A stretch of DNA of 64,000 nt from Melioribacter roseus (GCA_020723165.1 DYJK01000004.1:3270-67269), one strand, 5' to 3'. Positions 5,858 to 22,857 are shown, counted from the stretch's first letter. Notes: generated by a model not told the origin, from the letters alone. Numbers and translations are program-made.

Positions 5858-6358
5858 TCATATTAATGAATTATATGTTTCAAATGTGAATTTATCGAAG
5901 CAGCAGAAAATTACTTTTTCAATTATCTGTTCATTCAATAAAAAATCTTTTACGGTATTCATTGCAATTTTAGCTGCACGTTCAATCGGGAACGAATAAA
6001 CGCCGGTACTAATTGCCGGGAATGCAATTGTTTTTATTTTATTCTCAACTGCACGCCACAAAGAATTTTTGTAACAGTCCGCAAGCAGATTATCTTCATT
6101 GTGGTTTCCTCCGCGCCAAACCGGTCCAACCGTATGAATAACATACTTAGCCGGTAAGTTGTATCCTTTTGTAATTTTTGCTTCACCGGTTGGGCATCCG
6201 CCAAGAGTTCGGCATTCTTCCAAAAGTTTTGGTCCGGCAGCACGATGAACAGCTCCATCAACTCCTCCTCCGCCAAGTAAAGTAGTATTAGCTGCGTTCA
6301 CTATTGCATCAACTTTTAGTTTGGTAATGTCTGCTAATTGTGCTTCTAACCTTACCAT
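5858..6358 (-). CDS. macro-domain protein (O-acetyl-ADP-ribose deacetylase / ADP-ribose binding, YmdB-like)
   Basis: Contains [39 protein letters not shown] and [14 protein letters not shown]. Start taken at the internal Met (MVRLEAQ..., ATG 6358-6356) rather than the ORF-track start at 6400. Confidence 0.85.
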
Positions 6359-6420
6359 CAATCGTCTTTGATTTTTGTTATTTCTCTTGTAACAATACAA
6401 AATATAACACTAAAATTAAC

Positions 6421-6460
6421 TTGACATTAGAAGTAAGAAAAATTAAGTTGTACCAACAAC
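6421..6460 (+). promoter_or_regulatory. candidate promoter (TTGACA) with inverted repeat GTTGT-N4-ACAAC, possible GntR operator
   Basis: TTGACA at 6421-6426. GTTGTACCAACAAC at 6447-6460 contains GT...AC half-sites, as in GntR/HutC-type operators. It lies in the gap between the divergent macro gene and the locus that contains the GntR gene. Confidence 0.3.
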
Positions 6461-6508
6461 CCATCAACTTAAAGAAATATTGTTATTTAAATCAATTTTG
6501 GAGAAAAA

Positions 6509-7513
6509 ATGCATAAAGTAGGACTTAGCAGAATCATTAATTACCTACTCGTCTTTGTTTTTCTGACCTCATTATTATATGCTCAGACAGATCTAAAGAT
6601 AGTTTCATTAGCTCCGAATTGGACAAATGCAGTTGCAGCATTAGGAGCCGCTGACCAACTTTGTGGTGTTACGAGATATTGCATTTTCCCGGATTCCATA
6701 CCGCGATTAGTCAAAGAAGGAAAATTAGAAATTGTAGGCGGTTTTGCAGATGTGAATTACTCCCGTATAAATGAAATCAAACCAGATCTTATACTAACTT
6801 GTACCGGGGTTCAAGCAAAAATAAGAGATAGATTTTTGAAAGAAGGTTATAAAGTTCTCCATATGGAAGAAACTAGTCTTACTGAAGTATATTCAAAAAT
6901 AGTTGAGTTGGGGAAAGCAATAGGAAAGGAAGAATCTGCTGATAAACTAGTTGAAGAAATCAAATGTAATCTTACAGATATTGCTGAAAAGTATAAAGAT
7001 TATCCACGCATAAGTGTTTACTACGAGATTAACTATTATTACAAATGTGTGCCCGGGAAAGACTCATATATATCTGAACTTTTGAAGATGGTGGGTGGAG
7101 AACCTATCTTTTCGGAAAGACCCGGAATAGCTCCATCTGTAACATGGGATGAAATAGTAAAAGCAAATCCAGACGTAATTTTAATTCCAATTTGGGATAA
7201 TGCTGGCGGTCCCTACTTCGAAGAAGAAAAAGTTGGATGGGGTACTACCACACCATATGAAATTGCACATAGAGAAGGTGCTTCAACTATCAATGCAGTT
7301 AAAAATGGCAGAGTTAGGTATATCAATTCTGCAAAGACAAAACAAGCCGGTCCGCAGATTCCTACTGCGGCTGATCTTTTTGGAAAAACTATCCACGCTG
7401 ATGGTGATCTGGAAATGTTAAAAATAGAAAAAGTACCGGATAGAATGGATGATGTTACGTTTTCAAAAATAATTCTTTATTTCCCTATGTATGCGTCGGT
7501 GTACAATAATTAA
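6509..7513 (+). CDS. periplasmic substrate-binding protein, BtuF/FhuD-like (class III, Peripla_BP_2-like)
   Basis: 334 aa. Signal peptide, then LKIVSLAPNWTNAVAALGAADQLCGVT...KPDLILTC...NPDVILIP, the pattern of cobalamin/siderophore-type binding proteins. Confidence 0.7.
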   Translation: MHKVGLSRIINYLLVFVFLTSLLYAQTDLKIVSLAPNWTNAVAALGAADQLCGVTRYCIFPDSIPRLVKEGKLEIVGGFADVNYSRINEIKPDLILTCTGVQAKIRDRFLKEGYKVLHMEETSLTEVYSKIVELGKAIGKEESADKLVEEIKCNLTDIAEKYKDYPRISVYYEINYYYKCVPGKDSYISELLKMVGGEPIFSERPGIAPSVTWDEIVKANPDVILIPIWDNAGGPYFEEEKVGWGTTTPYEIAHREGASTINAVKNGRVRYINSAKTKQAGPQIPTAADLFGKTIHADGDLEMLKIEKVPDRMDDVTFSKIILYFPMYASVYNN

Positions 7514-7555
7514 ATCTGGTTAATTTAGTTCATTGTTGAAAGATCGAGGTAATCA

Positions 7556-8320
7556 ATGGAAATAGACAAAAAGAGTGCACTTCCACTTTATTATCAACTT
7601 AAAGAAATTCTTAAAGAAGAAATAGATATTGGTAAGTATAAACCAAATGAAAAAATTCCTTCTGAAAATGAATTGGCTGAACTTCTAAAGATCAGCCGTA
7701 ATACAGCTAAACAAGCAATTGCAGATTTAGTTTCGGAAGGGATGCTCTATCGTGTACAAGGTAGGGGAACATTTGTTGCAGAGAGAAAAATATTCAAAGG
7801 TCTCACTGATGCGTACAGTTTTTCCTCCGAATTCCAGTACAATGGTTCGGCAATAAAAACGAAGGTTATCATATCAGAAGAAATTTTTGAGTCGAAGGAA
7901 GCACTTGAATATCTAAAAATGAAAGAAAGTACCGAGTTATATCGTGTTCAAAGATTAAGATTAATGAACAATCTGCCGGTTGCTCTGCAAACCTCTTATA
8001 TCCCGAAATTTTTCTGCCCCGATTTACTTTCTCATGATCTTTCAAGCAATTCATTATTTGACATCTTGAAGGAACATTACCAGCTCAACTTCGGCTATTT
8101 TACAGAAAACCTAACATGTGTAAAAGCCGATCAATATGAAGCAGATTTATTGAAGGTTAAAAAAGGATCACCGCTATTTCTTTTAACAAGAAAAACATTT
8201 ACAAAAAATGATGAAATAATCGAAGTGGTTCGCTCATTTTTACCGGGAGATAGATGTGAATTTTCTTTCACCCATGGTGCGGATATGAGTATAGAATTAA
8301 ATCATATTGCTGTTGGTTGA
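7556..8320 (+). CDS. GntR-family transcriptional regulator, HutC subfamily (wHTH + UTRA-like)
   Basis: PLYYQLKEILKEEIDIGKYKPNEKIPSENELAELLKISRNTAKQAIADLVSEGMLYRVQGRGTFV, followed by a C-terminal domain of about 170 aa. Confidence 0.85.
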   Translation: MEIDKKSALPLYYQLKEILKEEIDIGKYKPNEKIPSENELAELLKISRNTAKQAIADLVSEGMLYRVQGRGTFVAERKIFKGLTDAYSFSSEFQYNGSAIKTKVIISEEIFESKEALEYLKMKESTELYRVQRLRLMNNLPVALQTSYIPKFFCPDLLSHDLSSNSLFDILKEHYQLNFGYFTENLTCVKADQYEADLLKVKKGSPLFLLTRKTFTKNDEIIEVVRSFLPGDRCEFSFTHGADMSIELNHIAVG

Positions 8321-8323
8321 AAA

Positions 8324-8851
8324 ATGTCGACTATACCGATACCAAAAGAAGAATTTGATATTCACGATCAAAAAATTTTTTGGTCATCTAGACGTATTGC
8401 ACGAATGGCAATTTTTATTGCGATGTGTGCTGTTGGGTCAATGATTAAAGTTCCAAGTCCAACCGGAACAGTAGCACTCGATGCAGCGTTTGCATTTTTC
8501 TCGGCAATTGCATTTGGTTGGCGCGAAGGTGCTATTGTAGCGGCTCTTGGTCATATGTTAACAGCACTAACTACCGGTTTTCCGCTCGGCTTGCCGATGC
8601 ATTTGTTTATATCAATTCAAATGGCAGCATGGGTTACTATTTTTGATCTAACAGCAAAGAAAATTCATTTATGGTTTGGTGCTGTTCTGGCCGTAATCTT
8701 GAATGGACCTATTTCTTCATTGCTGGTAATACCTATTGGTGGATTTGGACTGTTTGCTGCATTGATTCTTCCACTAACTGTTGGTGGTTTTATCAATGTT
8801 TTTATTGCGTGTACTGCATACCTGATTATTCAAAAGAGTAGAATGGTGTAA
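8324..8851 (+). CDS. ECF-transporter substrate-capture (S) component, specificity unknown
   Basis: 175 aa with about 6 TM segments. It sits directly upstream of EcfA/EcfT genes. Its stop overlaps the next start (TAATG). Confidence 0.65.
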   Translation: MSTIPIPKEEFDIHDQKIFWSSRRIARMAIFIAMCAVGSMIKVPSPTGTVALDAAFAFFSAIAFGWREGAIVAALGHMLTALTTGFPLGLPMHLFISIQMAAWVTIFDLTAKKIHLWFGAVLAVILNGPISSLLVIPIGGFGLFAALILPLTVGGFINVFIACTAYLIIQKSRMV

Positions 8852-9666
8852 TGATGAATTTGAATTTGTTATACCAGAGATATCGGGAATTAAAAGAATC
8901 CAATACGAATTTGTTTAATACCAGGCATGTCCGCGATCTTTTAATTTCTGAATTGACTGATGATCTATGGATAGTGGTTAGTTCGGATTCAGATGGTGGT
9001 ATCGGTCCTAAGAAACATGACACAGTTTTTTCTCCAGCTTACGATCTTGGTAGGCTTGGAACAAGAGTAGCATTGATGGAAATGATGGCGTCAGGTGCTT
9101 TACCAATCATGGTAGTTGATGTTCTTTCGGTTGAGATGGAACCGACCGGTAAAGAGATTATTGAAGGTGTTAAAGATGAAGCAGAAGAAGCCGGGATGAA
9201 TCGTGATATTGTTATTACCGGCAGTACCGAGGATAATGTTGAAACAGTACAAACCGGGATGGGTGTTGTTATTATAGGATTAGTTCATAAAAATGATTTT
9301 AGACCCGGTAAAAGTTTGAATGGGGATATTGTTGTTGCGATAGGAAAACCTAAATCTGCACCGGAGTATAAAATAATTTTTAATGATAATGAAATCACTA
9401 ATACAAAGACAATCATTGAATTAAATCGATGTAAATTTATACACGATATTCTTCCAGTTGGTTCAAAAGGTATCCAGCATGAATTTTATGAGTTGGGAAA
9501 GAGTGCCGGACTTCTTCCACATTATTATAGTGTTAATGATATAGATGTAACAAAATCCGGCGGACCTTCAACAAGCTGCCTTATTTCTCTGCCTAAGAAT
9601 GAATTACAAAATCTTCAAAACAAAATAGATAAACCAATGTGCGTTATTGGTGAACTAAGAGGATAA
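8851..9666 (+). CDS. PurM/ThiL/HypE-superfamily (AIR-synthase-related) protein, putative small-molecule kinase
   Basis: 271 aa. WIVVSSDSDGGIGPKKHD...AYDLGRLGTRVALMEMMASGALPIMVVDVLSV...ITGSTEDNV resembles the N-terminal ATP/metal-binding domain of the PurM superfamily. Assignment made by eye only. Confidence 0.5.
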   Translation: MMNLNLLYQRYRELKESNTNLFNTRHVRDLLISELTDDLWIVVSSDSDGGIGPKKHDTVFSPAYDLGRLGTRVALMEMMASGALPIMVVDVLSVEMEPTGKEIIEGVKDEAEEAGMNRDIVITGSTEDNVETVQTGMGVVIIGLVHKNDFRPGKSLNGDIVVAIGKPKSAPEYKIIFNDNEITNTKTIIELNRCKFIHDILPVGSKGIQHEFYELGKSAGLLPHYYSVNDIDVTKSGGPSTSCLISLPKNELQNLQNKIDKPMCVIGELRG

Positions 9667-9667
9667 C

Positions 9668-11422
9668 TTGAATATAGAGGAATTGGAAAGAGGATCGGTT
9701 GTGGTAGATTTGGAAAAGTATACTTACCCCGGGAGTCCCAGTGCAACTCTTAAGAAAATTAATTTTAAAATTAATAAAGGCGAATTTATTGGAGTAATGG
9801 GTAGAACCGGTTCAGGAAAAACTACAACATTAATGCTTCTCAACGGTTTGATACCTCATTTTTTTGAAGGCAATTTTGACGGCTCTGTAATTGTTAATAC
9901 AATGAACACGCAAAGATATAGAGTACAAACACTTGCCCGGTTTATTGGATTAGTTATGCAAGATCCTGAAACTCAGATTTTTGGGATAACTGTTGAAAAA
10001 GATACTTCCTTTGGTCCCTCCAACCTTAATTACAGAAAAGAAAAAATTGAAGAGCTTGTTACAAAATCACTTCCATTAGTTGGACTAAGCGGATTTGAAA
10101 AAAGAATAACAACGGAATTATCAGGCGGCGAAAAACAACGTTTAGCAATTGCCGGTGTCTTAGCAATGGAACCGGAAATAATTGTGCTTGATGAACCAAC
10201 TTCGGAATTGGACCCGAACGGACGCGCTGAAATTTACCGGGTTCTTTCAGAAATCCGCAGAAAAGAAAACGTTACTGTGATTATATCCGGCCATGATTCC
10301 GAGGAGATGCTTGATTTCGTTGATAAGATTATTGTCCTTGATGAAGGCGAGGTCGTTTGGCAAGGTATACCCCACGATCTATTTAAGAATGTGTCGCTTA
10401 CAGAAAAGTATGGAATTAGGCCAATCGAAACAGCTGAAATTTCAAATGCACTTTGTAAAGATTCTGTGTCAAAAGAGACCGAAATATTTTTGCATAGCGG
10501 GCAGCTCATCGAATATCTAAACAAACAATTAAAAAGTTGTTCAACCAAAAACGAAATACATAAAGAAACTTTTATTCCAAAACAGAAAAAGACTGTAATT
10601 GAAACAATTGATCTTTCATTCGGATATCGGAAAAATGAAGCCGCTCTTAATAAAATTAATCTTAGAATTGGCAAAGGTGAATTTGTTGCAGTAATCGGAA
10701 AGAATGGTGCCGGTAAAACCACATTTTCAAAACATCTTAATGGATTATTGAGACCAACATCGGGTCAGGTACTGATAAATGGAAGAAACATTCAATCAGT
10801 TAGTACTTCTGAATTAAGCCGTGAAGTGGGATATGTTTTTCAAAATCCCGATCACCAGATTTTTTCTGCAAGTGTGAGAGAAGAAGTTGAGTATGGATTG
10901 AAAAATTTAAATCTAACAAAAGTTGAGATTGAAGAAAGGGTAAATAAAGTATTAAAATTTGTTGGATTAATAGAATATCAAAATCGGCATCCGTTTACAT
11001 TAGGTAAAGGGGAACGTCAGAAATTAGCTTTTGCTTCTATCCTTGTAATGGAACCGGGGATTTTAGTAATAGATGAACCTACTACGGGTCAGGATTGGGA
11101 TGGAACAAAAAGAATGATGACTATGATGAAAGAGTTACACCAAAACGGACATACAATATTGACCATAACTCATAATTTGAGATTAGCCGCCGAGTATGCC
11201 GATAGAATAATTGTGTTTTCAAATGGAATGGTAGTATTGGATGGAACACCCCCGGAGGTTTTTTCACAAGAGCAAATTCTTGAATCGGCTTCTGTTTCGT
11301 CTCCCGAAAGTGTAAAAATTGGAAGATCTCTTTTCGAGTTAGGTTTTAGAAACGACCTTATTACCGTGAATCAAATTAAAGAACAACTGTTGGAAAATTT
11401 GAGTTTGATAAATGTTAATTGA
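9668..11422 (+). CDS. ECF-transporter ATPase, fused EcfA-EcfA' (two ABC domains)
   Basis: 584 aa. Two Walker A motifs (GRTGSGKTT, GKNGAGKTT), two signature motifs (LSGGEKQR, LGKGERQK) and two Walker B motifs (VLDEPTSELD, VIDEPTTGQD). TTG start one nt after the previous stop. Confidence 0.9.
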   Translation: MNIEELERGSVVVDLEKYTYPGSPSATLKKINFKINKGEFIGVMGRTGSGKTTTLMLLNGLIPHFFEGNFDGSVIVNTMNTQRYRVQTLARFIGLVMQDPETQIFGITVEKDTSFGPSNLNYRKEKIEELVTKSLPLVGLSGFEKRITTELSGGEKQRLAIAGVLAMEPEIIVLDEPTSELDPNGRAEIYRVLSEIRRKENVTVIISGHDSEEMLDFVDKIIVLDEGEVVWQGIPHDLFKNVSLTEKYGIRPIETAEISNALCKDSVSKETEIFLHSGQLIEYLNKQLKSCSTKNEIHKETFIPKQKKTVIETIDLSFGYRKNEAALNKINLRIGKGEFVAVIGKNGAGKTTFSKHLNGLLRPTSGQVLINGRNIQSVSTSELSREVGYVFQNPDHQIFSASVREEVEYGLKNLNLTKVEIEERVNKVLKFVGLIEYQNRHPFTLGKGERQKLAFASILVMEPGILVIDEPTTGQDWDGTKRMMTMMKELHQNGHTILTITHNLRLAAEYADRIIVFSNGMVVLDGTPPEVFSQEQILESASVSSPESVKIGRSLFELGFRNDLITVNQIKEQLLENLSLINVN

Positions 11423-12221
11423 TTACTATCCATCAAATAGTTTTATTCATTCTCTTGATGTACGCACAAAGTTACTTGGTTTTTTAATAATAACCGTTGC
11501 AGCATTTGTATTTTTGTCGCCGTTTATCAACTTACTGATTGCAGCAATTACATTTCTAATACTTCTCACAATAAAAACGCCTCTTCATAAAATAAAACAA
11601 GTTCTAAAACCACTTCTTCCAATTTTTTTAATAATGCTTTTAATAACTGGTTTTACTTACCCGGCTGAAAAATTTCAACTCGATCTAAACAAGCAGATAC
11701 TTTTTTATTTATTCCCGGATAAAACTTTACCGATCTCGGTTGGTGGTATCTTTTATGGGTTAACATTAACTCTTAGGATTTTAATAATGGTTCTTGCATC
11801 AACGGTTGTAACATTCAGTACACCGATAGAAGATATTATTCAACTGATGCAAAAAATGAAAATGCCTTATCAACTGGCTTTTGTAATTGCAACCGGGATA
11901 AGATTCGTCCCGACAATGCAGAAAAAATCGGAGATGATCCAGGAAGCACAAAAAGCACGGGGTACCGAATTTGGAAACAAAGGATTAATTGGAAATATCA
12001 AATCGTATATCCCGGTACTTATTCCAATGATTGTTGATTCAATCCGCATGTCCGAAAATCTTGCTATCTCAATGTTAAACCGTGGATTTGGCACATACAA
12101 ATCAGCTACTAATCTGCACGAAATAAAAATGATGAAAAAAGATTACGCAATATGTTTAGCCGAGTTGATAATTCTAATAGCAGCAATCTGGGCGAATACC
12201 GAAAATGTTGGAGTTCTGTAA
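11412..12221 (+). CDS. ECF-transporter transmembrane (T) component, EcfT/CbiQ family
   Basis: 269 aa polytopic membrane protein. Overlaps the ATPase gene by 11 nt. General CbiQ-like layout including a ...AQKARG... segment. Confidence 0.75.
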   Translation: MLIDYYPSNSFIHSLDVRTKLLGFLIITVAAFVFLSPFINLLIAAITFLILLTIKTPLHKIKQVLKPLLPIFLIMLLITGFTYPAEKFQLDLNKQILFYLFPDKTLPISVGGIFYGLTLTLRILIMVLASTVVTFSTPIEDIIQLMQKMKMPYQLAFVIATGIRFVPTMQKKSEMIQEAQKARGTEFGNKGLIGNIKSYIPVLIPMIVDSIRMSENLAISMLNRGFGTYKSATNLHEIKMMKKDYAICLAELIILIAAIWANTENVGVL

Positions 12222-13264
12222 TGATAAAAGAAAATTCAATTTCACTAAAATCAATAGGGTTAGAAAAAGAGATCATCTTTAAAAAGGCGTTTGGGTCGCT
12301 TCTCGGTGTTGCATACGGAGATGCAATGGGTATGCCGACATCTTTGATGGATCCGGTTACAATAAGAAAAATGTTCCCGGAACGAATCACAAGTCTTTTG
12401 CCGGCACCGGAAGGTCATATCATTCATAATAAAATGTTAGCCGGCGAGATTACGGATGATACTCAACAAACACTGCTTCTTGCAGATCTGTTTATTGAAG
12501 AAAAGAAATTTACACGGCACGGTGTTGCGAAAAAATTACTTGAATGGGCAAAAGGTTTAAACGCTTTTCAATCAATGATACTAGGACCAAGCTCACTTCG
12601 CGCTTTAAAGATGATTGATAACGGAATCCCGGTTGAAGAAACCGGCAGTATGGGAGACACAAACGGTGCTGCAATGAAAATCGCACCGGTAGGAATTGTT
12701 CATCCCGGCGATTACGATGCAGTAGTAAATGATGTTGCAGAAGTTTGCATTCCCACACACAATACGAATATGGCAATTTCCGGGGCGTCTGCTGTCGCAT
12801 GTGCAGTAGCATCGGGTATGGCAAACAGAAACATGGATGATTTGATAGAAGCATTTTATTATGGGGCCAAAGAAGGGATGAAATTCGGAAGGCAATGGTA
12901 CGGGGCATCAATATCAAAAAGAACTGAGTTGGCGCTTAAAATTATCCGCTCGGGAAAAAGTGAAGCAGAGATATGGCAAGATTTATATGATTATGTAGGC
13001 ACCGGCGTTGCTATATCGGAATCTGTGCCTACAGCACTTGCATTAGTAGTTTATTACAATGGTAATCCTCTCAAAACCGCTGAAGCTGCTGCTAACATTG
13101 GCGGCGATTGCGATACTGTTGGTGCAATTGCCGGCGGTATTGCCGGTGCATATTCAGGGTATGAAATATTTCCTTCAAATATTATCGAACAGTTATCACG
13201 AGTGAACAAAATTGATTTTGAAGGGTATGCGAAAAAAATTTCTGATTCCGTATTAACGACATAA
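12221..13264 (+). CDS. ADP-ribosylglycohydrolase-family (DraG/ARH-like) protein
   Basis: Contains GSLLGVAYGDAMGMPTS, ITDDTQQT and GGDCDTVGAIAGGIAGAY motifs. Start placed at ATG 12221, which overlaps the ecfT stop (TAATG). The ORF-track start at 12152 lies inside ecfT. Confidence 0.8.
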   Translation: MIKENSISLKSIGLEKEIIFKKAFGSLLGVAYGDAMGMPTSLMDPVTIRKMFPERITSLLPAPEGHIIHNKMLAGEITDDTQQTLLLADLFIEEKKFTRHGVAKKLLEWAKGLNAFQSMILGPSSLRALKMIDNGIPVEETGSMGDTNGAAMKIAPVGIVHPGDYDAVVNDVAEVCIPTHNTNMAISGASAVACAVASGMANRNMDDLIEAFYYGAKEGMKFGRQWYGASISKRTELALKIIRSGKSEAEIWQDLYDYVGTGVAISESVPTALALVVYYNGNPLKTAEAAANIGGDCDTVGAIAGGIAGAYSGYEIFPSNIIEQLSRVNKIDFEGYAKKISDSVLTT

Positions 13265-15031: not shown

Positions 15032-16909
15032 ATGAAAAAGCTATTCAGCATTTTATCATTATTACTGATTCTTATTATTTCTACAAGTCTAACATTTGCC
15101 CAGGATGAGGGAAAAGAAAAAACTAATGAAAAAATAGTTTCTACCAAAGAATTATCCGACAAAACAAATGCAGAGGATATGGCAGAAGCTTTAAAAACTA
15201 TTCCTGGTGTTTACATCCGCTCCGGTCAAATTAATATTAGGGATGCAACTGCGAACAAAATTCTAATATTAATTGACGGGCAGAGAGTTAATAACGCACA
15301 AAGCGGAGGATACGATGTAACAACCATTCCAATCGATGCCGTTGAAAATGTTGAAGTGTTAAGAGGTGGTAACTCAGCCCGCTATGGTGCCGATGCTGTT
15401 GGAGGCGTTGTGAATTTCATTACTAAGAAAGCTAAAGAAGTTTCTAAAATGGATGTTGGATTAAGGGCAACTTATGGGTCTTTTAATTCCCAATATTACA
15501 GCGTTTACACCTCCAATACGGTAAGCGATTTCAACTATTACCTTTCTTACAAACGAAGACAGAGCGATGGTGATTTCAAGTACAAAGATTTTGATGGTGT
15601 AGACCAGACAAGAGAGAATAATCATTCTAAAGGGGATGATTTCCTTGTAAAATTGGGTTACAAACTTCAAGAAAATTCGAACCTTTCATTTACCGGTCAA
15701 TTAGGTCAATCCGAAAATGGTTCAGCCGGTAGTGTAAAAGGATTAAAGAATTATGCAAGTACAACACCAAACGCAATTCTGAAAACTAATAATTCGTTTT
15801 TTAATCTTAGCTACGGTATAAAAGAGATATACGGCAAAGCTGATTTAAATGCTAACAGTTACTATCAATTTTTCAGAACACGGTATAACGATCCTGATAC
15901 ATGGGGCGGACCTACCGCAAGTGATCATAAAGTAAATGCATATGGATTCGAGGTTACACAAAATAATCCTATGATGGATTTACTTACTTTGGTATATGGA
16001 TATGCATATCGCCATGATAACGCCAACAGCACATCGATTGGTGATAAGAATCGTAATACACATAGCGGACACCTTTCAGCAAATCTCGGTTTTAAGGATA
16101 TCGGTTTTTATTTGAACAATATTTCAATTATACCGGCTGTTCGTTATGATGCACCGTCAGATTTTGATAAAGTGTTAAGTCCAAAGATCAGTTTTATTTT
16201 TGCCAGCACAGATGCCTACGCTTTCAACATTAACGTACATTGGAGCAGATCATACAGAGCACCGACATTTAATGATTTATTCTGGCCTGAAGATTCTTAT
16301 ACAGTTGGTAACCCGGATCTGAAACCAGAGTATGGCAGAACTATTGAAGCCGGTTGTGGGGTGACATTACCTTCCATTAATGTAACGTTAAGGTTAAATT
16401 ATTTTAATAGTAAAATGACCGATCAGATTATTTGGGCTCCGAGGGCATCAGATTTTAAATGGACTCCCACAAATGTTGACAACTCACTAACTAGCGGACT
16501 TGAATCCTATGTTGGTATAAAATTCTTCGAGGATAAATTAAAGTTCGAGATTAACCATACCTATATGGATGCACGGGATAAAAGCGGTAAGACCAATGAT
16601 AATAAATTGCTCATCTATCGCCCGTATCACAAATTAGATTTTAACACCGCTGTTACAATAGACATTTTTGAAGTAAATGTTAACTATCAGTTTCTGAGTG
16701 ATCGTTACGTAGATGCAAAAAATTCTGCCGTTTTACCGGATGTCAGCAAGTGGGATCTTAATATTGGCACAAGTCCAAAATTATTTGATCTGAACTGGAC
16801 AGTCAGAATTGATGTAAATAATGTGTTTAATAAAAACTACCGGTTGAATGACGGTTATCCTTTGCCGGGAAGAGAAATACGCGGAACGATTGGGTTGAGT
16901 CTACTCTAA
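15032..16909 (+). CDS. TonB-dependent receptor (BtuB-sized)
   Basis: Signal peptide MKKLFSILSLLLILIISTSLTFAQ. Plug motifs IDGQRVNNAQSGGYD and VEVLRGGNSARYGADAVGGVVNFITK. C-terminal barrel with NNVFNKNYRL. Start chosen 6 nt after AGGAGG. Confidence 0.85.
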   Translation: MKKLFSILSLLLILIISTSLTFAQDEGKEKTNEKIVSTKELSDKTNAEDMAEALKTIPGVYIRSGQINIRDATANKILILIDGQRVNNAQSGGYDVTTIPIDAVENVEVLRGGNSARYGADAVGGVVNFITKKAKEVSKMDVGLRATYGSFNSQYYSVYTSNTVSDFNYYLSYKRRQSDGDFKYKDFDGVDQTRENNHSKGDDFLVKLGYKLQENSNLSFTGQLGQSENGSAGSVKGLKNYASTTPNAILKTNNSFFNLSYGIKEIYGKADLNANSYYQFFRTRYNDPDTWGGPTASDHKVNAYGFEVTQNNPMMDLLTLVYGYAYRHDNANSTSIGDKNRNTHSGHLSANLGFKDIGFYLNNISIIPAVRYDAPSDFDKVLSPKISFIFASTDAYAFNINVHWSRSYRAPTFNDLFWPEDSYTVGNPDLKPEYGRTIEAGCGVTLPSINVTLRLNYFNSKMTDQIIWAPRASDFKWTPTNVDNSLTSGLESYVGIKFFEDKLKFEINHTYMDARDKSGKTNDNKLLIYRPYHKLDFNTAVTIDIFEVNVNYQFLSDRYVDAKNSAVLPDVSKWDLNIGTSPKLFDLNWTVRIDVNNVFNKNYRLNDGYPLPGREIRGTIGLSLL

Positions 16910-16930
16910 TACTGGTGCATATACACAACT

Positions 16931-16988
16931 CCGGCTGGGGAATGCGCACATGTTTCTTCCTTAAAATTTCCGTGTGCGCATCCCCGGT
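16931..16988 (+). promoter_or_regulatory. long GC-rich stem-loop between the two TonB-dependent receptor genes
   Basis: CCGGCTGGGGAATGCGCACA pairs with TGTGCGCATCCCCGG around a loop of about 22 nt. No trailing T run. Confidence 0.5.
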
Positions 16989-17037
16989 ATTAGGTTAATT
17001 ACGTTTCATTTATCAAAAAGAAATTGAGGATGATGTA

Positions 17038-19257
17038 ATGATGACCGGATCAATAAAAATAATATTGTTATTTCTTTCCATCTTGTTAATCATACCGTTG
17101 AAAGCCCAGGACTTCGGTACAGTGAGCGGTAATGTGAAAGATGAGAAAACAAGAGAGGCGCTTATAGGTGTTAATGTCTATTTGAAAGGAACACATATAG
17201 GAAGTGCAACAGATGTAAATGGTAATTACTTTATAAAACAAGTGCCGGCTGGCAAATGGATTTTAGTTTGCAGCATGCTTAACTACATTAAGGTTGAAAA
17301 AGAAATTGAGGTAAACAATAATCAAAATCTTACTATTGATTTTAGTCTTATCAATGACGAGCTAACTTTTTCCGAAGTAGTAATAACTGCAACACGTAAT
17401 GCAGAACTTGTAACCAATGTACCGGTAGCCACGGAAATTCTAAACAGTAAAGAAATTATAAACTCTAACGCTAAAAACGTTGGAGAAATTTTAAAATCAA
17501 TCGGTTCATCATTAATAAAAAGTTATGGTGCCGTAGGATCGCTGGAATCTGTTTCGTTGAGAGGTTCTACAAGTGATCAAGTTCTCATTTTAGTTGATGG
17601 CCAAAGACTAAACAACGCACAGCAAGGTTCGGTTGATTTAAGTTCGATTTCACTTGATGCTGTTGAAAAGATCGAAGTTGTTAAAGGCGGTAACTCGGCT
17701 ATGTACGGCAGCGATGCAGTTGGTGGAGTAATTAATGTTATTACAAAATCAATGGCGCGGAAAGATAAATTGGATTATTCTGTGAATGCTTTGTATGGAT
17801 CTTACAATACTCAAACTTATGATATTTCAGTTGGTCAAGGGATAAAGAATTTTGATTACTTTGTTTCATATAACAAAACACTTACCGACGGTAATTTTGA
17901 ATTCATTAATAAATTAGGCGAAAAAACAGAATTGAAGAACGGTGATACAAAAGCCGATAACATTTTTGTAAAAGGAGGTTACTTATTCGAAAATCAATCC
18001 AGGTTATCAGCATTTTACAAGTATCGTAAATCCGATAATGGTTCACCCGGTTCTATCGATTATCCTAATTACTCAGCCCGAAATAAAGTTGATAATAATC
18101 ATCTAAGTCTTTCCTACGAAGGATTATCATTTGGACCTTTTGCATTTAATTTTAATACCTATTTTATGCAGCGTGAACACCATTATGTAAATCCTGAATC
18201 TTACTTGGGAGCCGAAGAAAGTATATATGATACAAAAGCAATAGGTGTAATGCTGCAAGCATTTACAGACTTGAATGAATACGGACTTCTTTCTTACGGT
18301 TATGAACTCCGTCAAGACAAACTTGAAAGTGATCATTTACTAGACGGGGTAAGTCAGCCATTTATTGGCGATCATCAGCGAAATGTAAACAGTTTTTATT
18401 TTCAGAATGATTGGAAATATGATATTGATCATGTGTGGAAATTTTCAATAGTGCCGGCGATAAGAGTAGATAAATACCCGGAGAAAGGAATCGGTACCCA
18501 GCTTTCACCAAAAGCCGGTTTTACATTTAGTCACGATGAAATATGGCGCGGCGCAATTAGGGGTAATGTTGGTAAAGTTTTTAGAGCACCAACTTACAGC
18601 GATTTGTATTGGCCTGAAGATACGTGGACAAAAGGAAATCCGGATTTAAAACCGGAGAAGGGAATTACCTATGATTTTGGTTTCATCGTTCAGTTTGCCG
18701 GACCCGGTAGCTGGAGTATTGAATCAACATATTTTGGCAGTAACCTTGAAGATTTAATACTTTGGGCATCTTCAGAATCAGGTAAATGGACACCGACAAA
18801 TGTATCAAAGGCAAAAATCAATGGAGTAGAATTAAAAGTTTCGTGGGAAGGATTCAACAAACTTCTTGAAATCCATTCATCATATACTTACATGAAAGCT
18901 AAGGATGATAGCGATAATCCAACCACATCCGGGAAAGATTTGATTTACAGACCGAAAGATAAATTTGATTTGATCTTGAATTTTAATTACTGGATTGCAT
19001 CATTAAATCTTAACTACAATTTTATCGGCAAAAGATTTCATGATTCAACAAATAAAATTGAATTAAGCAGTTACGAATTAGTTAATGTTAACCTTGGTGT
19101 ATCACCAAAGGTCGGCGATGTTAATCTTAATTTCCGTTTCGAAGTAAATAATTTATTCGACAAACAATTACAAATTATAAAAGGATCGCCGGTCCCGGGT
19201 AGAGAATTAAGATTTTCAATAGGTGTTAATGGATCAATAACGGGAATAGAGTTATAG
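17038..19257 (+). CDS. TonB-dependent receptor with N-terminal carboxypeptidase-regulatory-like domain
   Basis: 739 aa. GTVSGNVKDEKTREALIGVNVYLKGT...NGNYFIKQVPAGKW, then plug motifs VDGQRLNNAQQGSVD and IEVVKGGNSAMYGSDAVGGVINVITK, then a barrel. Confidence 0.85.
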   Translation: MMTGSIKIILLFLSILLIIPLKAQDFGTVSGNVKDEKTREALIGVNVYLKGTHIGSATDVNGNYFIKQVPAGKWILVCSMLNYIKVEKEIEVNNNQNLTIDFSLINDELTFSEVVITATRNAELVTNVPVATEILNSKEIINSNAKNVGEILKSIGSSLIKSYGAVGSLESVSLRGSTSDQVLILVDGQRLNNAQQGSVDLSSISLDAVEKIEVVKGGNSAMYGSDAVGGVINVITKSMARKDKLDYSVNALYGSYNTQTYDISVGQGIKNFDYFVSYNKTLTDGNFEFINKLGEKTELKNGDTKADNIFVKGGYLFENQSRLSAFYKYRKSDNGSPGSIDYPNYSARNKVDNNHLSLSYEGLSFGPFAFNFNTYFMQREHHYVNPESYLGAEESIYDTKAIGVMLQAFTDLNEYGLLSYGYELRQDKLESDHLLDGVSQPFIGDHQRNVNSFYFQNDWKYDIDHVWKFSIVPAIRVDKYPEKGIGTQLSPKAGFTFSHDEIWRGAIRGNVGKVFRAPTYSDLYWPEDTWTKGNPDLKPEKGITYDFGFIVQFAGPGSWSIESTYFGSNLEDLILWASSESGKWTPTNVSKAKINGVELKVSWEGFNKLLEIHSSYTYMKAKDDSDNPTTSGKDLIYRPKDKFDLILNFNYWIASLNLNYNFIGKRFHDSTNKIELSSYELVNVNLGVSPKVGDVNLNFRFEVNNLFDKQLQIIKGSPVPGRELRFSIGVNGSITGIEL

Positions 19258-19292
19258 TTTTATCTAAATGCGGATTTTATTGGAGACATAAT

Positions 19293-20498
19293 ATGAGTAA
19301 ACAATATTTTGTCAGGGATATTGGTTTGGCTTCGAAGGGGGAGATACAAATTAAATGGGTCTCTAAGTGGATGCCGGTATTGAATAATCTTTATAAAAAA
19401 TTCAACGCTACCGGTGCGTTTAAAAATAAGAAAGTTGCTCTTTGCATTCATCTTGAAGCTAAAACAGCTTATTTAGCTTTAACGATTAAAAAATTAGGTG
19501 CCGAAGTTTGGGTGACAAGCAGTAATCCTCTCTCCACAAAAGATGAGGTAGCAGCAGCACTTGCAAAAAGAGGTGTGCATGTTTATGCAAGACATGCGGC
19601 GCCACACGATGAATATCTATCGTACATTGATACAATTCTAAAAAATAAAATGGATGTAACTGTTGATGATGGCGGAGACATATGTGAATATTTACATAAA
19701 AATCAGAAGTACGGTGTTAATATCAAAGGTATATGCGAAGAAACGACAACCGGTGTGAATCGCTTAAAAGAACTTGAGAAAAAGGGTAAACTTATTTATC
19801 CGTCAATTGCAGTCAATGATGCAAAATCCAAACATCTTTTTGATAATCGTTATGGAACGGGCCAATCTACCTGGACTGCAATTACCCAGCTAACAAACAT
19901 GAATGTTGCCGGCAAGTGTGTTGTTGTGGTTGGTTATGGCTGGGTTGGCAGAGGTGTTGCTGCGCGTGCACAAGGATTGGGTGCAAATGTTATTGTGACT
20001 GAAATTGATCCGTGGAAAGCGCTTGAAGCAAGCATGGATGGTTTCAGAGTTATGCCCGCTATAGATGCAGCACCCAAAGGTGATTTTTTTATCACAACAA
20101 CGGGTCAAAGCAAAGTAATCAGAATTGAACATATGAAAAAAATGAAGAATGGTGCTTTCCTTTCTAATGCCGGGCATTTTGATTATGAAATTGATATTCC
20201 GGCACTCAAAAAGTCAGCTAAAAAATGCGAAGTTGTAAGGGATGAAATCGAAGAATATCTTTTGCCAAATGGGAAAATGATTTATATTCTTGCGCGTGGA
20301 GGAATAATAAATATTGCCGGCGGTTTAGGCCATCCGGCAGATATTATGGATATGTCTTTCTCGGTTCAATTAGGTTGTCTTCATCATTTTCTATCTTCAA
20401 AGAAGATGCTTCCTAAACTTTACAAAGTCCCGGAAGAAATTGATCGCCTGGTTACTGTAGAAAAACTAAGAGTTGAAGGTGTAACAATTGATAGATAA
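19293..20498 (+). CDS. ahcY: adenosylhomocysteinase, short (archaeal/Thermotoga-like) form
   Basis: 401 aa. Contains HLEAKTAYLALTIKKLGAEV, DDGGD, EETTTGV and an NAD-binding VVVVGYGWVGRGVAARAQGLGANVIVTEIDP segment. Confidence 0.85.
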   Translation: MSKQYFVRDIGLASKGEIQIKWVSKWMPVLNNLYKKFNATGAFKNKKVALCIHLEAKTAYLALTIKKLGAEVWVTSSNPLSTKDEVAAALAKRGVHVYARHAAPHDEYLSYIDTILKNKMDVTVDDGGDICEYLHKNQKYGVNIKGICEETTTGVNRLKELEKKGKLIYPSIAVNDAKSKHLFDNRYGTGQSTWTAITQLTNMNVAGKCVVVVGYGWVGRGVAARAQGLGANVIVTEIDPWKALEASMDGFRVMPAIDAAPKGDFFITTTGQSKVIRIEHMKKMKNGAFLSNAGHFDYEIDIPALKKSAKKCEVVRDEIEEYLLPNGKMIYILARGGIINIAGGLGHPADIMDMSFSVQLGCLHHFLSSKKMLPKLYKVPEEIDRLVTVEKLRVEGVTIDR

Positions 20499-20514
20499 TT
20501 AATAGAGGTCCCAG

Positions 20515-21825
20515 ATGGATATATCTAGAATAATAAACTTTTTTGGAATCCCGGTATTACTTTTATTTGCCTGGCTGTTATCATCCAATCGCAAGGTCGT
20601 TAACTGGCGCGTGATTATATGGGGACTAATTATAGAATTAGTTTTAGCATTGTTCATATTTGTAATTCCAATTGGTACTAAATTTTTTCTGATTGTTAAT
20701 GACGTTGTGAACAGTATTCTTGATAGTGCTACATACGGAACAGTGTTTGTGTTTGGACCCCTGGCTTTATCACCGGGTAAAACATTACCTACCGGCGAGA
20801 CTTCAATTGGTTTTATATTAGCGTTTCAGGCATTGGCTACAATTATATTTTTTGCGGTGCTGGTTGGTCTTTTATATTATTATGGAATTATGAGCAAGGT
20901 GATCCAATTCTTCTCGCTTGTTTTTACAAAGTTGATGAAGATAAGCGGCGCGGAATCACTCTGTGCATCTTCCAACATTTTTGTCGGCGTCGAATCAGGC
21001 CTGGTAGTTAAACCGTACCTAGGTAAAATGACAAAATCTGAGTTGAATACGATACTTACTGCCGGTATGGCAACAATTGCATCAAGTATGCTTGCAGTCT
21101 ACATATTAATTTTAAGAAATGAATTCCCAAATATTGCCGGGCATCTTGTTTCAGCAAGTCTTATGAATGCGCCGGCTGCTATAATCATTTCTAAAATTCT
21201 TTTACCGGAAGAAGAAACACCGGTTACTCTCGGTAAAAATGTTAAACCTTTATATGAAAAGGAGAGCAGTTTTTTTGAATCTATTATTAATAATGCAAAT
21301 TCAGGCGTTAAGTTGATCGTTGGAATCAGTGCATTATTGCTGGCAGTATTGGGATTGATGTCCTTGCTCGATAAAATTTTAGTATTTCTTGGAGGAGAGA
21401 TTAACAATTTGTTCTCGTTAAATATTGATTGGACACTGAAAGGTTTGTTAGGCTATTTATTTTACCCGGTAACTTTCATAATAGGAATCCCGGCGAGTGA
21501 TGTTGCTTCTATTTCCAAAATTATCGGTGAAAGGTTGGTGCTTACCGAAATCCCGGCATTTAAAGATTTATCTGTTCTTATGGCAAGCGGAAGTTTATCT
21601 TCAATGCGGAGTGCTGTTATGACAACTTACGCATTAACCGGATTTGCGCACGTTGCTTCGATTGCAATTTTTGTTGGTGGTTTTACAGCATTAGCTCCGG
21701 AAAGAATTAAAGATTTTGCCAAATTGGGATTCCGTGCTTTAATAGGTGCAACACTTGCTAATCTGGTTACATCTACAATTGCCGGCTTATTCTATACTAA
21801 TGGAACAATATTGTTGGGCAATTAA
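20515..21825 (+). CDS. concentrative nucleoside transporter, NupC/CNT family
   Basis: 436 aa polytopic protein. N-terminal FGIPVLLLFAWLLSSNRKVVNWRVIIWGL and overall CNT-like layout. Confidence 0.75.
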   Translation: MDISRIINFFGIPVLLLFAWLLSSNRKVVNWRVIIWGLIIELVLALFIFVIPIGTKFFLIVNDVVNSILDSATYGTVFVFGPLALSPGKTLPTGETSIGFILAFQALATIIFFAVLVGLLYYYGIMSKVIQFFSLVFTKLMKISGAESLCASSNIFVGVESGLVVKPYLGKMTKSELNTILTAGMATIASSMLAVYILILRNEFPNIAGHLVSASLMNAPAAIIISKILLPEEETPVTLGKNVKPLYEKESSFFESIINNANSGVKLIVGISALLLAVLGLMSLLDKILVFLGGEINNLFSLNIDWTLKGLLGYLFYPVTFIIGIPASDVASISKIIGERLVLTEIPAFKDLSVLMASGSLSSMRSAVMTTYALTGFAHVASIAIFVGGFTALAPERIKDFAKLGFRALIGATLANLVTSTIAGLFYTNGTILLGN

Positions 21826-22857
21826 ATGCTTGCTTATCAAGATATACCGCATATTATAAAAAAAATGCCCAAAGTAGAAATCCATCTTCACTTAGAAGGT
21901 GCTTTCACATTTGATTTTCTTTTTGACCTGGTAAATAAATACGGCGGCGATCCTGAAATAAAAAATATAGACGATTTGCGTAAAAAGTTTGTGTTTTCTG
22001 ATTTCTCTCATTTTATAAATACGTGGTTTTGGAAAAATAAATTTTACCGTAAACCGGAAGATTTTGAAAATTCTACATATCAAACGTTAAAAAATTTGTC
22101 TCTGCAAAATGTTATTTACGCCGAAGTTTTTTTTTCGCCGTGGGATTTTGCGCCGAATAATTTAAGGATGGAAGAAATTGCTGAAGCTACGATATCCGGG
22201 ATCCGAAAAGCTGAAAACGATTTCCCGATTAAATGCGGATTGATAGCTGATATTGTTCGTGACCATGGTGCTGAAGGAGCGATAGAAAGATTACAACACA
22301 CAACTCCCTTCCTCGGAAGAGGAATAATAGGTATAGGATTGGGGGGGAATGAAAAAGATTTTCCTCCAATCTTTTTTAAAGATGTTTTTCATGAAGCAAA
22401 AAGAATAGGATTTAGAACTACTATCCATGCCGGCGAGGCATCCGGACCAGAATCAATTTGGTCGGCAATAAATGATCTTGAAGCGGAAAGGATTGGACAT
22501 GGTGTCAGGGCAGTTGAAGATCCGAAGCTCGTTGATTATCTATATTCAAAGCAAATTCCTCTCGAAGTTTGTATTACAAGTAATTTGAAGACTAGAGTAT
22601 TTCAGTCGCTTCATGAACACCCATTTGATGATTTTTATAAAAAGGGATTGATGGTAACCGTCAATTCCGATGATCCACCGATGTTCGGTTCGGACATTAC
22701 CGATGAATTTTTTCTTCTCTATGATAAGTTAAAATATAACTACGACGATTTAAAACAAATTACACTTAATGCTCTAAATTCCAGTTTCCTAGGTGAGAGT
22801 GAGAAGAAAAAATATCATGATATAATTACAAAGTACTGGGCTGCTATCAAACAATAA
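21826..22857 (+). CDS. add: adenosine deaminase-family amidohydrolase
   Basis: 343 aa. Metal-ligand motifs PKVEIHLHLEGA, TIHAGE, RIGHG and NSDDP. Starts immediately after the nupC stop. Confidence 0.85.
   Translation: MLAYQDIPHIIKKMPKVEIHLHLEGAFTFDFLFDLVNKYGGDPEIKNIDDLRKKFVFSDFSHFINTWFWKNKFYRKPEDFENSTYQTLKNLSLQNVIYAEVFFSPWDFAPNNLRMEEIAEATISGIRKAENDFPIKCGLIADIVRDHGAEGAIERLQHTTPFLGRGIIGIGLGGNEKDFPPIFFKDVFHEAKRIGFRTTIHAGEASGPESIWSAINDLEAERIGHGVRAVEDPKLVDYLYSKQIPLEVCITSNLKTRVFQSLHEHPFDDFYKKGLMVTVNSDDPPMFGSDITDEFFLLYDKLKYNYDDLKQITLNALNSSFLGESEKKKYHDIITKYWAAIKQ

Follow-up and report, generated by a model that had tools for sequence, protein, structure and literature searches.

The lower ligands of cobamides, and alpha-ribazole itself, are exchanged among microbes and shape which forms of vitamin B12 an organism can use. 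As far as we know from the literature found, CblT/CblS is the only route known for the salvage of alpha-ribazole, and none by which an alpha-riboside is broken has been described. A second system with related parts is the yegTUV cluster of Escherichia coli, in which the GntR repressor YegW/GgaR, with ADP-glucose as its reported effector, controls the genes for YegU, a member of the ADP-ribosylglycohydrolase (ARH) family, for a transporter of nucleoside type and for a PfkB kinase; ARH-family genes and nucleoside hydrolases are also carried by some variants of the ribose-utilisation systems of Bacteroidetes, the rus polysaccharide utilization loci (PULs). The alpha-ribazole transporter/kinase pair has been described for Listeria and other Firmicutes, as cited in passages of PMC6167548, PMC5064896 and PMC6461909, the last of which also treats CbiZ as a cobamide remodelling enzyme. 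Here, a locus of Melioribacter roseus is analysed in which relatives of the CblT/CblS pair are found together with an enzyme of the YegU type. It lies within positions 5,858-22,857 of a stretch of 64,000 nt (GCA_020723165.1, DYJK01000004.1:3270-67269; the whole stretch is called the window in what follows), where ORF calling gives 13 co-directional open reading frames (ORFs) on the + strand (6509-22857) and, divergent from them, one at 5858-6400 (-).

We propose that the 13 genes form a HutC/GntR-repressed operon for scavenging a cofactor-sized ribosylated phosphoester, most plausibly a cobamide or a fragment of its nucleotide loop with an alpha-linked lower ligand, a reading to which we would assign a probability of roughly 0.45, i.e. 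slightly less than even. It starts from what the sequences themselves show, namely which families the genes belong to, how widely the set is conserved, an operator, homology with CblT and CblS, a separate clade of kinases linked to ARH genes, and the fingerprint of S-inosylhomocysteine hydrolases (SIHH). The 13-gene layout proposed in an earlier reading of the same DNA, made from the sequence alone (the sequence-only reading), was recovered to the exact coordinate for every ORF. In gene order, the junctions measure +42, +3, -1, +1, -11, -70, +76, +2, +128, +35, +16 and 0 nt, which agrees with the description given there of overlaps or gaps of at most 76 nt with a single exception of 128 nt. 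The 70-nt overlap between the sixth and seventh genes, those of EcfT and the ARH enzyme, shrinks to 1 nt if the latter starts at the ATG at 12221, and this start yields the -1/-4 overlap found in relatives. Profile searches (Pfam, NCBIfam with equivalog cutoffs, and Rfam at gathering thresholds) upheld nearly all of the earlier family assignments, i.e. Peripla_BP_2, GntR with UTRA, an energy-coupling factor (ECF) S component, the AIRS N-domain, a fused ECF-type double ABC ATPase, CbiQ/EcfT, ADP_ribosyl_GH, two Plug/TonB receptors, AdoHcyase, NupC, A_deaminase and, for the divergent gene, Macro; the assignment that failed is "PHP phosphoesterase", the product concerned matching neither Pfam PHP nor any other Pfam family.

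Central to the proposal are two overlapping genes, the first for a CblT-like ECF transporter S component (8324-8851, +; PF12822, 46 bits; PF07155, 43.7 bits), the second for a PurM-superfamily ATP-utilising enzyme (8851-9666, +; AIRS N-domain, 34 bits) which, from its fold and its homologs, is proposed to be a riboside 5'-kinase. Searches of PDB and NCBIfam with the sequence of the latter returned nothing beyond marginal matches to SelD. Its AlphaFold2 (AF2) model, with a pLDDT of 91.6, matched SelD, ThiL, PurL, HypE and PurM about equally well in Foldseek (1e-12 to 1e-14, TM 0.6-0.69, identity 12-19%), which points to an ATP-using enzyme of the PurM superfamily from a branch without a solved structure. 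Judging from the model, the protein is a user of ATP, as are all known members of this superfamily.

The kinase family is small and sharply bounded, with 604 clusters among 1.84e9 representatives in an exhaustive profile search, and the motifs DSxGGIG, GSTExN, DILPVGSxG and KSxGPST are present in both of its branches. One branch, linked to cob genes, carries the annotation name "alpha-ribazole kinase" in NCBI and UniRef. The kinase of the window is 40% identical over its full length (E 2e-56) to a Gottschalkia protein so named (P0413), and 37% identical, with every motif kept, to a member linked to cobUSC; the S component of the window is 43% identical over 80 aa to the one that follows cobU-cobS-cobC in locus L092. 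Related loci, about 170 in all, were collected as 84 ARH-type loci (80 from reference genomes and 4 from contig look-ups, anchored on the PurM-like protein) and 80 short-type loci from a metagenome scan tuned to the short type; ORF calling in them relied on a simple script, and the ORFs were assigned from BLASTP matches that passed coverage thresholds. A short-type kinase occurs in the order MarR, CobU, CobS, CobC-type phosphatase, ECF S component, kinase. Across the 80 loci of the scan, the S component lies directly upstream of the kinase in 54, and CobS, CobU and CobC are adjacent in 28, 26 and 21, respectively, several loci also having CbiG and CbiA upstream; the eight ARH-type loci among these 80 are without cob genes. 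In a distance-based neighbour-joining tree (midpoint-rooted, after removal of 45 sequences by a motif filter), all 77 ARH-linked kinases form one clade, with 0 cob-linked members. The link to CblS is drawn from gene context and public annotation names, and the cluster names of ten short-type members gave nothing useful. In the window, as in the CblT/CblS pair, the S component precedes the kinase with an overlapping junction. Because of these identities, the shared S-kinase junction and the ARH-only clade, the two genes of the window represent a sister lineage of the alpha-ribazole transporter/kinase pair. Of the three candidate substrate classes put forward in the sequence-only reading, it is thus the alpha-ribazole or corrinoid lower-ligand option that gains specific support from the homology to CblT and CblS.

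Other members of the kinase family have domain arrangements of their own. In P0282 (L089:4080-5507), an NAD_binding_7 domain (PF13241), presumably of the precorrin-2 dehydrogenase type, is fused to a CblS-family kinase inside an operon with CbiG, CbiA/CobQ-type and NicO genes; this unusual polypeptide unites an enzyme for an early stage of the corrin ring with one for lower-ligand salvage. Another member adjoins a tetrapyrrole methylase gene. An N-terminal ribbon-helix-helix (CopG) or DUF6290 domain is found in P0306 (L090:1746-2687), in P0281 and in the extension of P0110 (L001:10001-10912), which hints at fusions of a kinase with a repressor, possible substitutes for the GntR regulator. Genes for SAM-dependent methyltransferases adjoin the kinase gene or lie near it in Brevibacillus laterosporus (L081:9205-9942, without ARH) and in a Thermoanaerobaculia metagenome-assembled genome (MAG; L061:7574-8536). 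The kinase also occurs without ARH in Salipaludibacillus, Brevibacillus laterosporus and Paenibacillus, where the gene context yielded no more than a methyltransferase, a P450 and a PASTA protein and is uninformative.

The second carrier of the argument is the YegU-type ARH-family enzyme, proposed to be a (phospho)ribosyl glycohydrolase (12221-13264, +; ADP_ribosyl_GH, 213 bits), the longest ORF of which starts at 12152, with the ATG at 12221 as the likely start. It is 35% identical to E. coli YegU over the full length (E 1e-64), with the motifs GDAMG, TDDT and GGDCDT visible, and is much closer to YegU than to DraG (1.5e-12) or ARH3 (about 1e-7), the nearest solved structure being MJ1187. Neither of the protein-ADP-ribosyl hydrolase equivalogs reached its cutoff (DraG, 69 bits against 337; Tri1, 59.5 against 490). 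ARH-family enzymes act on alpha-anomeric ribosyl bonds which arise from ADP-ribosyltransferase-type reactions, and alpha-ribazole phosphate is made by a phosphoribosyl transfer of this kind. An alpha-riboside is therefore favoured as the substrate, also because the only known substrate of the kinase family is an alpha-riboside. For CobT, an ADP-ribosyltransferase activity has been described (PMC5718407). A literature search combining alpha-ribazole with ADP-ribosyl enzymes found nothing that links ARH enzymes to alpha-ribosides.

The kinase and the ARH enzyme form the most constant part of a larger gene set. Among the 84 ARH-type loci, many of which end at contig ends, with an effect on the gene counts, the ARH gene is present in 71 and adjacent to the kinase gene in 71, followed by the GntR regulator (60/84), EcfAA' (43/84), the S component (42/84), EcfT (36/84), TonB-dependent receptors 1 and 2 (TBDR1, 33/84; TBDR2, 27/84), the BtuF-like protein (24/84), the S-adenosylhomocysteine hydrolase (SAHH) family enzyme (14/84, or at least 21 when 7 N-terminal fragments at locus ends are included), the CehA-like enzyme (10/84, all Ignavibacteria-type), NupC (9/84) and the adenosine-deaminase-family enzyme Ada (8/84). 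Four architectures can be distinguished. The gene order of the window is found in Ignavibacteria, Melioribacteraceae and Calditrichia. An ECF-less order, with secreted Metallophos, GntR, kinase, ARH, TBDR1, TBDR2, beta-propeller lipoprotein, SAHH, NupC and Ada, occurs in Marinimicrobia, Fidelibacterota and others. Bacillota have a bare cassette of GntR, S, kinase, AA', T and ARH with variable flanks, and Acidobacteria an arrangement of large receptor, TPR protein, kinase, ARH, FG-GAP protein and three divergent IU-nucleoside hydrolases. In addition, gene orders are shuffled in L023, L027, L032, L087 and L088, for instance Ada-BtuF-like-kinase-ARH in L023 and L027 and ARH-Metallophos-Ada-BtuF-like-SAHH-TBDR in L032, and the string from the receptors to Ada is repeated in a Planctomycetia MAG and in one other lineage. 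That the gene set is kept despite rearrangement argues for functional linkage. The sequence-only reading had named as fatal to its proposal that these modules be adjacent in this genome only, with independent promoters. As to adjacency, the arrangement recurs in dozens of loci from other phyla, and the co-occurrence in Ignavibacteriota, Marinimicrobia/Fidelibacterota, Calditrichia, the Planctomycetia MAG and others bears out one conserved unit rather than a chance neighbourhood.

Control of this unit can be predicted in some detail. The regulator (7556-8320, +) has the layout of the HutC subfamily, with an N-terminal GntR winged helix-turn-helix (66.6 bits) and a C-terminal UTRA effector domain (116 bits); none of the named NCBIfam equivalogs (HutC, PhnF, TreR and others) reaches its cutoff, and identity to E. 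coli YegW/GgaR is 25%. Its presumed binding site is the operator-like palindrome GTTGTACCAACAAC (GTTGT-N4-ACAAC; 6447-6460), located 49 nt upstream of the first gene inside the 108-nt divergent intergenic region. The palindrome has its sole exact match in the 64-kb window here, and across the related loci (1.21 Mb) it is matched exactly at 21 sites, 20 of them at an operon head, in three phyla and with one site per locus; it precedes the BtuF-like gene in Ignavibacteria-type loci and the Metallophos gene in Marinimicrobia and Calditrichia. This is the signature expected of an orthologous HutC-type repressor with its operator, which we presume it to be. Its position at the operon head would place the first gene of each architecture under HutC-type control and, since the gaps between the genes are tiny, we infer that the distal genes are co-transcribed with it. 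A scan for sigma-70-like promoters and terminators gave matches at or below shuffle expectation and was uninformative.

The outer layers of the system resemble those of vitamin B12 uptake. The first gene of the operon encodes a secreted class-III BtuF-like periplasmic binding protein (6509-7513, +; Peripla_BP_2, 102 bits; signal peptide), with 4m7o and E. coli BtuF as the nearest solved structures (about 5e-13) and 25% identity (E 1e-17) to a BtuF encoded beside cblTS in a cob operon. The two receptors are paralogs of 36% identity. TBDR1 (14987-16909, +; Plug and barrel) is a small BtuB-like barrel whose best NCBIfam matches, below cutoff, are B12-type receptors, and TBDR2 (17038-19257, +) has an N-terminal CarboxypepD_reg domain and BtuB proteins as its best solved relatives (E. 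coli BtuB, 3e-29; Bacteroides BtuB1, full length, 2.5e-24). Between the ARH and receptor genes lies the gene for a secreted CehA/McbA-type (PHP-like) metallohydrolase, proposed to be a periplasmic phosphoesterase (13341-14984, +; NF038032, 188 bits, cutoff 80), which has a signal peptide, a PHP-like HHH..HSDG motif and a weak match to a PHP-type nucleoside bisphosphate phosphatase. Elsewhere a secreted calcineurin-type (Metallophos) phosphoesterase is found in the operon instead (L049:7871-9226, L032:14416-16245 and 20 other loci), usually encoded by the first gene and fused to CBM9 in L032; the phosphoesterase role would thus have been kept through non-orthologous displacement of one type by the other. 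The layered picture drawn in the sequence-only reading, from outer membrane through periplasm and inner membrane to cytoplasm, is consistent with the signal peptides and the family calls.

Some further features of these layers were observed. A beta-propeller lipoprotein of about 340 aa, absent from the window, is encoded after TBDR2 in loci of Marinimicrobia type, in those of Planctomycetia and in others (L087:3374-4393, L088:7510-8535, L062:7477-8496 and 13 more); it resembles YVTN surface-layer proteins, with weak matches both to the BtuG-type "YncE family" proteins crystallised with BtuB and to DUF5074. In propeller-bearing loci, a 306-aa multi-pass membrane protein without Pfam match often follows Ada (L023:12351-13271, L087:9120-10040). 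The large hairpin which had been noticed in the 128-nt gap between the receptor genes was found again by folding, as a stem-loop at 16934-16988 (+) without a clear T tract: the spacer has a folding energy of -38.4 kcal/mol (z = -3.3), a stability reached by 0 of 200 shuffled sequences. A stem-loop of differing sequence is kept at the same receptor junction in L005-L019, in nearly all of the Ignavibacteria-type loci, and some versions have T-rich stretches behind them. Its role may be to stabilise the mRNA between the cistrons, or to set the ratio of TBDR1 to TBDR2 as a leaky terminator.

Import across the inner membrane would be energised by a fused EcfA-EcfA' ATPase (9668-11422, +; two ABC_tran domains; TIGR04521, 491 bits, and TIGR04520, 481 bits, both above cutoff) and the transmembrane component EcfT (11412-12221, +; CbiQ, 112 bits). 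With S, A, A' and T encoded together (8324-12221), the layout is that of a group I (dedicated) ECF transporter, and the same order is found in Bacillota and Calditrichia. An attempt to identify it with "HtsT" from the ECF census was fruitless. Given BtuB-, BtuF- and BtuG-like components, and the existence of cobalamin ECF transporters, it could be asked whether this is a non-canonical uptake system in which receptors, BtuF-like protein and ECF module import intact B12-type cofactors for use, with kinase and ARH as accessories and with the SIHH-type enzyme and Ada as a sign that B12-dependent methionine synthase is tied to the methyl cycle; the SIHH-type enzyme yields homocysteine, the substrate of methionine synthase. 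We regard this as very improbable. The S component is CblT-like and has no detectable similarity to the solved CbrT, Marinimicrobia-type loci have neither ECF nor BtuCD and only NupC, a cobalamin riboswitch was not found (see below), and a secreted phosphoesterase and a kinase-ARH pair would be superfluous for importing an intact cofactor.

The last three genes of the operon would concern adenosyl and related nucleosides. The first encodes a short-form enzyme of the adenosylhomocysteinase family (19293-20498, +; NF004005, 551 bits, cutoff 275; TIGR00936, 489.9 bits, cutoff 497.6) with the SIHH-type fingerprint H52-L-E-A-K56. It has been reported that HxExK enzymes prefer S-inosylhomocysteine, and HxTxE/Q enzymes S-adenosylhomocysteine (SAH) (Koeppl et al. 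2024, PMC10978960). HxExK is present in 18/18 locus-linked homologs with an intact region and in 119/120 of the closest database homologs. The earlier designation as a short-form SAH hydrolase therefore stands as to the AdoHcyase family and needs amending as to the fingerprint. The gene follows TBDR2 in at least 21 loci, and the closest homologs come almost solely from cluster-carrying lineages. It is followed by genes for a nucleoside transporter of the NupC/CNT family (20515-21825, +; Nucleos_tra2_N, Gate, Nucleos_tra2_C), which is the sole inner-membrane transporter in ECF-less Marinimicrobia-type loci, and for an adenosine-deaminase-family enzyme (21826-22857, +; A_deaminase, 274 bits; TIGR01430, 293 bits, cutoff 217). 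This tail is probably a deaminating adenosyl-to-inosyl module, a prediction from family and fingerprint, and its link to the rest is supported by co-occurrence.

The tail is also where the unity of the operon can be questioned. In a KSB1 contig (L086:10001-12512), the SIHH-type and Ada genes occur as a pair without other cluster genes, so that the tail may be a semi-independent module, and the pair possibly a module of its own that would be a bacterial version of the archaeal route of SAH deamination. One could go further and see three independent neighbours, each with its own promoters: the GntR-ECF-kinase-ARH core, the receptor block, and the tail. The Bacillota cassette, which lacks the other modules, the single operator per locus at the head, and the positionally conserved hairpin between the receptor genes would all suit such a view. 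We nevertheless consider it distinctly improbable, as the modules are found together, in differing gene orders, in four or more lineages at the level of phyla, the tail gaps are only 35, 16 and 0 nt, the closest SAHH homologs are nearly confined to lineages with the cluster, and sigma-70-like promoter matches do not exceed chance.

If the scavenging of an alpha-linked riboside from a cobamide or its nucleotide loop is taken as the working model, the following sequence of events can be envisaged; what each enzyme does, which compound is taken up and to what end, be it lower-ligand recycling or remodelling as opposed to nutrition, are all our inference. The two BtuB-like receptors would bring the compound into the periplasm, where the BtuF-like protein would hold it; in other phyla the BtuG-like propeller is present as well. 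The secreted metallophosphoesterase, of CehA/PHP type here and of calcineurin type elsewhere, would strip the phosphate ester(s) and thereby free the riboside, which would be taken up by the ECF importer with its CblT-homologous S component, or by NupC where there is no ECF. In the cytoplasm, the CblS-like PurM-superfamily enzyme would phosphorylate the riboside with ATP, and the YegU-type ARH enzyme would hydrolyse the glycosidic bond to give the free base and ribose 5-phosphate. The SIHH-type hydrolase, NupC and Ada would process adenosyl or inosyl nucleosides, either co-released or derived from the methyl cycle. The regulator, bound to the palindrome at 6447-6460, would presumably be released by the riboside or its phosphate.

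Several points weigh against this model. Cleavage of alpha-ribazole phosphate would destroy a direct precursor of cobamides, and the ARH-linked kinase clade may have changed substrate since its split from CblS. CobU, CobS, CobC, CbiG and CbiA are found in 0/84 ARH-type loci, and there are no cob genes in the window; Rfam searches of the window locus, 17 ARH-type loci and 5 cob-type loci revealed no cobalamin or other riboswitch near the operons. By equivalog scores, the binding protein (NF002894 for BtuF, 65.7 bits, far under the cutoff of 234) and the two receptors (TIGR01779 for BtuB, 148 and 220 bits, cutoff 600) are, as far as profiles can tell, B12-uptake-like and not BtuF or BtuB proper, and no BtuC-like permease gene is present in the window or in 82/84 related loci. 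The solitary SIHH-Ada pair of KSB1 has been mentioned above. Repressors of HutC type usually control catabolic operons rather than vitamin salvage. Finally, in Zhaonella and Rubrobacter the kinase-ARH pair has IU-nucleoside hydrolases, a Bmp ABC importer and a PfkB kinase as its neighbours, and in Acidobacteria three IU-nucleoside hydrolases and a ureide-permease-like transporter; such nucleoside-catabolic neighbours fit a general catabolism of ribosides.

This last option, in which the locus is a counterpart of the rus PULs and of yegTUV, holds that receptors and phosphoesterase harvest nucleotides or oligonucleotides, that beta-nucleosides, either ordinary ones or modified ones from RNA, enter through NupC and the ECF transporter, that the PurM-like protein is a diverged nucleoside kinase, that ARH cleaves a nucleoside monophosphate resistant to standard hydrolases, and that Ada feeds purine catabolism. 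Besides the neighbours just named, it would account for NupC and Ada in the operon, for the HutC-type regulator, for the missing riboswitch and cob genes, for the ARH genes reported in rus PULs, and for an ARH enzyme 35% identical to YegU, which is encoded beside a nucleoside-type transporter and a sugar kinase. It would leave aside that kinase and S component are clearly homologous to the alpha-ribazole pair, that ECF importers are high-affinity systems for micronutrients, and that the receptors, binding protein and propeller resemble parts of B12 uptake and not SusC/SusD: TBDR2 scores 106 bits with the SusC/RagA model (cutoff 368), the 13 genes include neither SusD nor PfkB, and no ribokinase or SusD was seen in the window. 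Moreover, ARH cleavage of beta-N-glycosidic nucleotides is not known to us. General riboside catabolism is thus somewhat unlikely in our judgement, and the capture of an alpha-riboside remains the reading we prefer.

The divergent gene (5858-6400, -) encodes a macro-domain protein assigned to the O-acetyl-ADP-ribose deacetylase equivalog (232 bits, cutoff 200). As noted in the sequence-only reading, it is transcribed divergently from the same promoter region. The operator in these 108 nt may therefore be common to both; as a part of the system it was rejected on co-occurrence, being present in 1/84 related loci, the nearest relative L005 only. It is a recent neighbour and not a member. Together with the ARH family, however, a macro-domain deacetylase next to the operon raises the question of NAD/ADP-ribose-type dinucleotides as the scavenged compound. 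A substrate of this kind, too big for porins, would enter via the receptors and be split by the phosphoesterase into adenosine, destined for NupC and Ada, and a second riboside or ADP-ribosyl conjugate, to be handled by kinase and ARH after import through the ECF system. In line with this are NupC and Ada, the secretion of a phosphoesterase from one or the other of two families, and ADP-glucose as the reported effector of the related regulator GgaR. Nevertheless we hold it to be unlikely: apart from the rarity of the macro gene, no Nudix, NadR or PnuC was seen in profile scans of the window and no NAD riboswitch in Rfam searches of the window and related loci, the homology of kinase and S component indicates alpha-ribazole and not nicotinamide riboside, and the SIHH-type enzyme would be left unexplained.

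Other features of the window stand apart from the locus. Just downstream of it, two ORFs at 23998-24447 (+; 149 aa) and 24663-26363 (-; 566 aa) belong to no Pfam family, with no NCBIfam match for the former and a marginal oxidoreductase match for the latter, and an ORF of 2106 aa is located at 50506-56826 (+). The only Rfam matches in the window, a tRNA (931-1003, -) and a fluoride riboswitch (1854-1914, -; 49.7 bits), lie upstream and are unrelated to the locus.

It is tempting to speculate that this is the first dedicated system for dismantling an alpha-N-linked riboside, from capture of a cobamide or its nucleotide-loop fragments through a periplasmic cut, CblT-like import and phosphorylation by a CblS-like kinase to cleavage by a YegU-type ARH enzyme, with alpha-ribazole or an alpha-purinyl riboside as the released intermediate. 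We consider this wider claim possible, if doubtful. Were it true, a small-molecule function would be assigned to the large YegU branch of the ARH family, E. coli yegTUV included, and a new route of cobamide lower-ligand recycling or remodelling would be defined in Ignavibacteriota, Marinimicrobia, Calditrichia and Bacillota. A sister clade of the alpha-ribazole kinase is here joined to a hydrolase family known for reversing alpha-ribosyl transfers, and its carriers include abundant, little-studied phyla such as Marinimicrobia and Ignavibacteriota. Even with another substrate, the locus provides a compact cassette of regulator, importer, kinase and hydrolase with a defined operator, and a handle on yegU and yegV of E. 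coli. Furthermore, SIHH-type hydrolases, so far studied in Archaea and Thermotoga, are widespread beside an Ada-family deaminase in the sampled lineages of the FCB group and in related phyla.

The statement in the sequence-only reading that no described pathway has this gene set must be qualified, in that the S component and kinase correspond to alpha-ribazole salvage, and the combination of GntR regulator, transporter, ARH and kinase parallels yegW/yegTUV; the full combination was not found in the literature. Our searches found no account in which a CblS-like kinase is coupled to ARH and accompanied by a dedicated ECF module, an operator of HutC type, two receptors and a phosphoesterase in the periplasm, and nothing that pairs an ECF transporter with an ADP-ribosylglycohydrolase or an AIR synthase. 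Partial likenesses are more numerous. The tail is like the SAH deamination of Archaea and Thermotoga (DadD with S-inosylhomocysteine hydrolase) in having a short-form HxExK hydrolase near a deaminase gene, except that the partner here is of the Ada family (PF00962) and not a DadD-type amidohydrolase, that NupC lies in between, and that the genes are part of an uptake operon. With the rus PULs, the locus shares the general plan of TonB-dependent-receptor loci that free ribose from ribosylated nutrients; those consist of SusC/SusD, ribokinases and RusR/LacI regulators, whereas the window has BtuB-like receptors, a CblS-like kinase, an ECF importer and a HutC regulator. With the BtuB-BtuG-BtuF(CD) uptake of E. 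coli and Bacteroides, it has in common BtuB-like receptors and a class-III binding protein, the propeller being found in sister loci, and differs in the lack of a BtuCD permease and a cobalamin riboswitch and in having two tandem receptor paralogs and a secreted phosphoesterase.

On the enzymatic side, the catabolism of pseudouridine, in which the kinase YeiC phosphorylates the 5' position and the glycosidase YeiN cleaves the product to release ribose 5-phosphate, follows the same logic of phosphorylating and then cleaving as the proposed pathway, with unrelated families and a C-glycosidic bond. CbiZ and CbiR, the latter also a cobamide remodelling enzyme, likewise remove the lower-ligand nucleotide from imported cobamides; they are cytoplasmic and of other families, whereas the candidate loop-cleaving enzyme here is a secreted one of PHP-like or calcineurin type and the riboside would be processed further. 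E. coli yegTUV with YegW/GgaR likewise combines an ARH-family enzyme and a kinase with a transporter of nucleoside type under a repressor of the GntR/HutC type, the kinase being PfkB there and PurM-like here, and the transporter of MFS/NHS type there and ECF plus NupC here; receptors, binding protein, phosphoesterase and SAHH/Ada are absent from the E. coli cluster. The closest parallel is CblT/CblS of Listeria innocua, Geobacillus and other Firmicutes, where the same two families occur in the same order. Unlike those, the kinase of the window falls in a separate clade that is never found with cobU, cobS or cobC, and is accompanied by its own EcfAA'T module, a HutC-type regulator and an adjacent ARH gene, to which Gram-negative lineages add receptors, a binding protein and a secreted phosphoesterase. 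By this comparison, the product of the kinase would be broken down here, and not passed to CobS.

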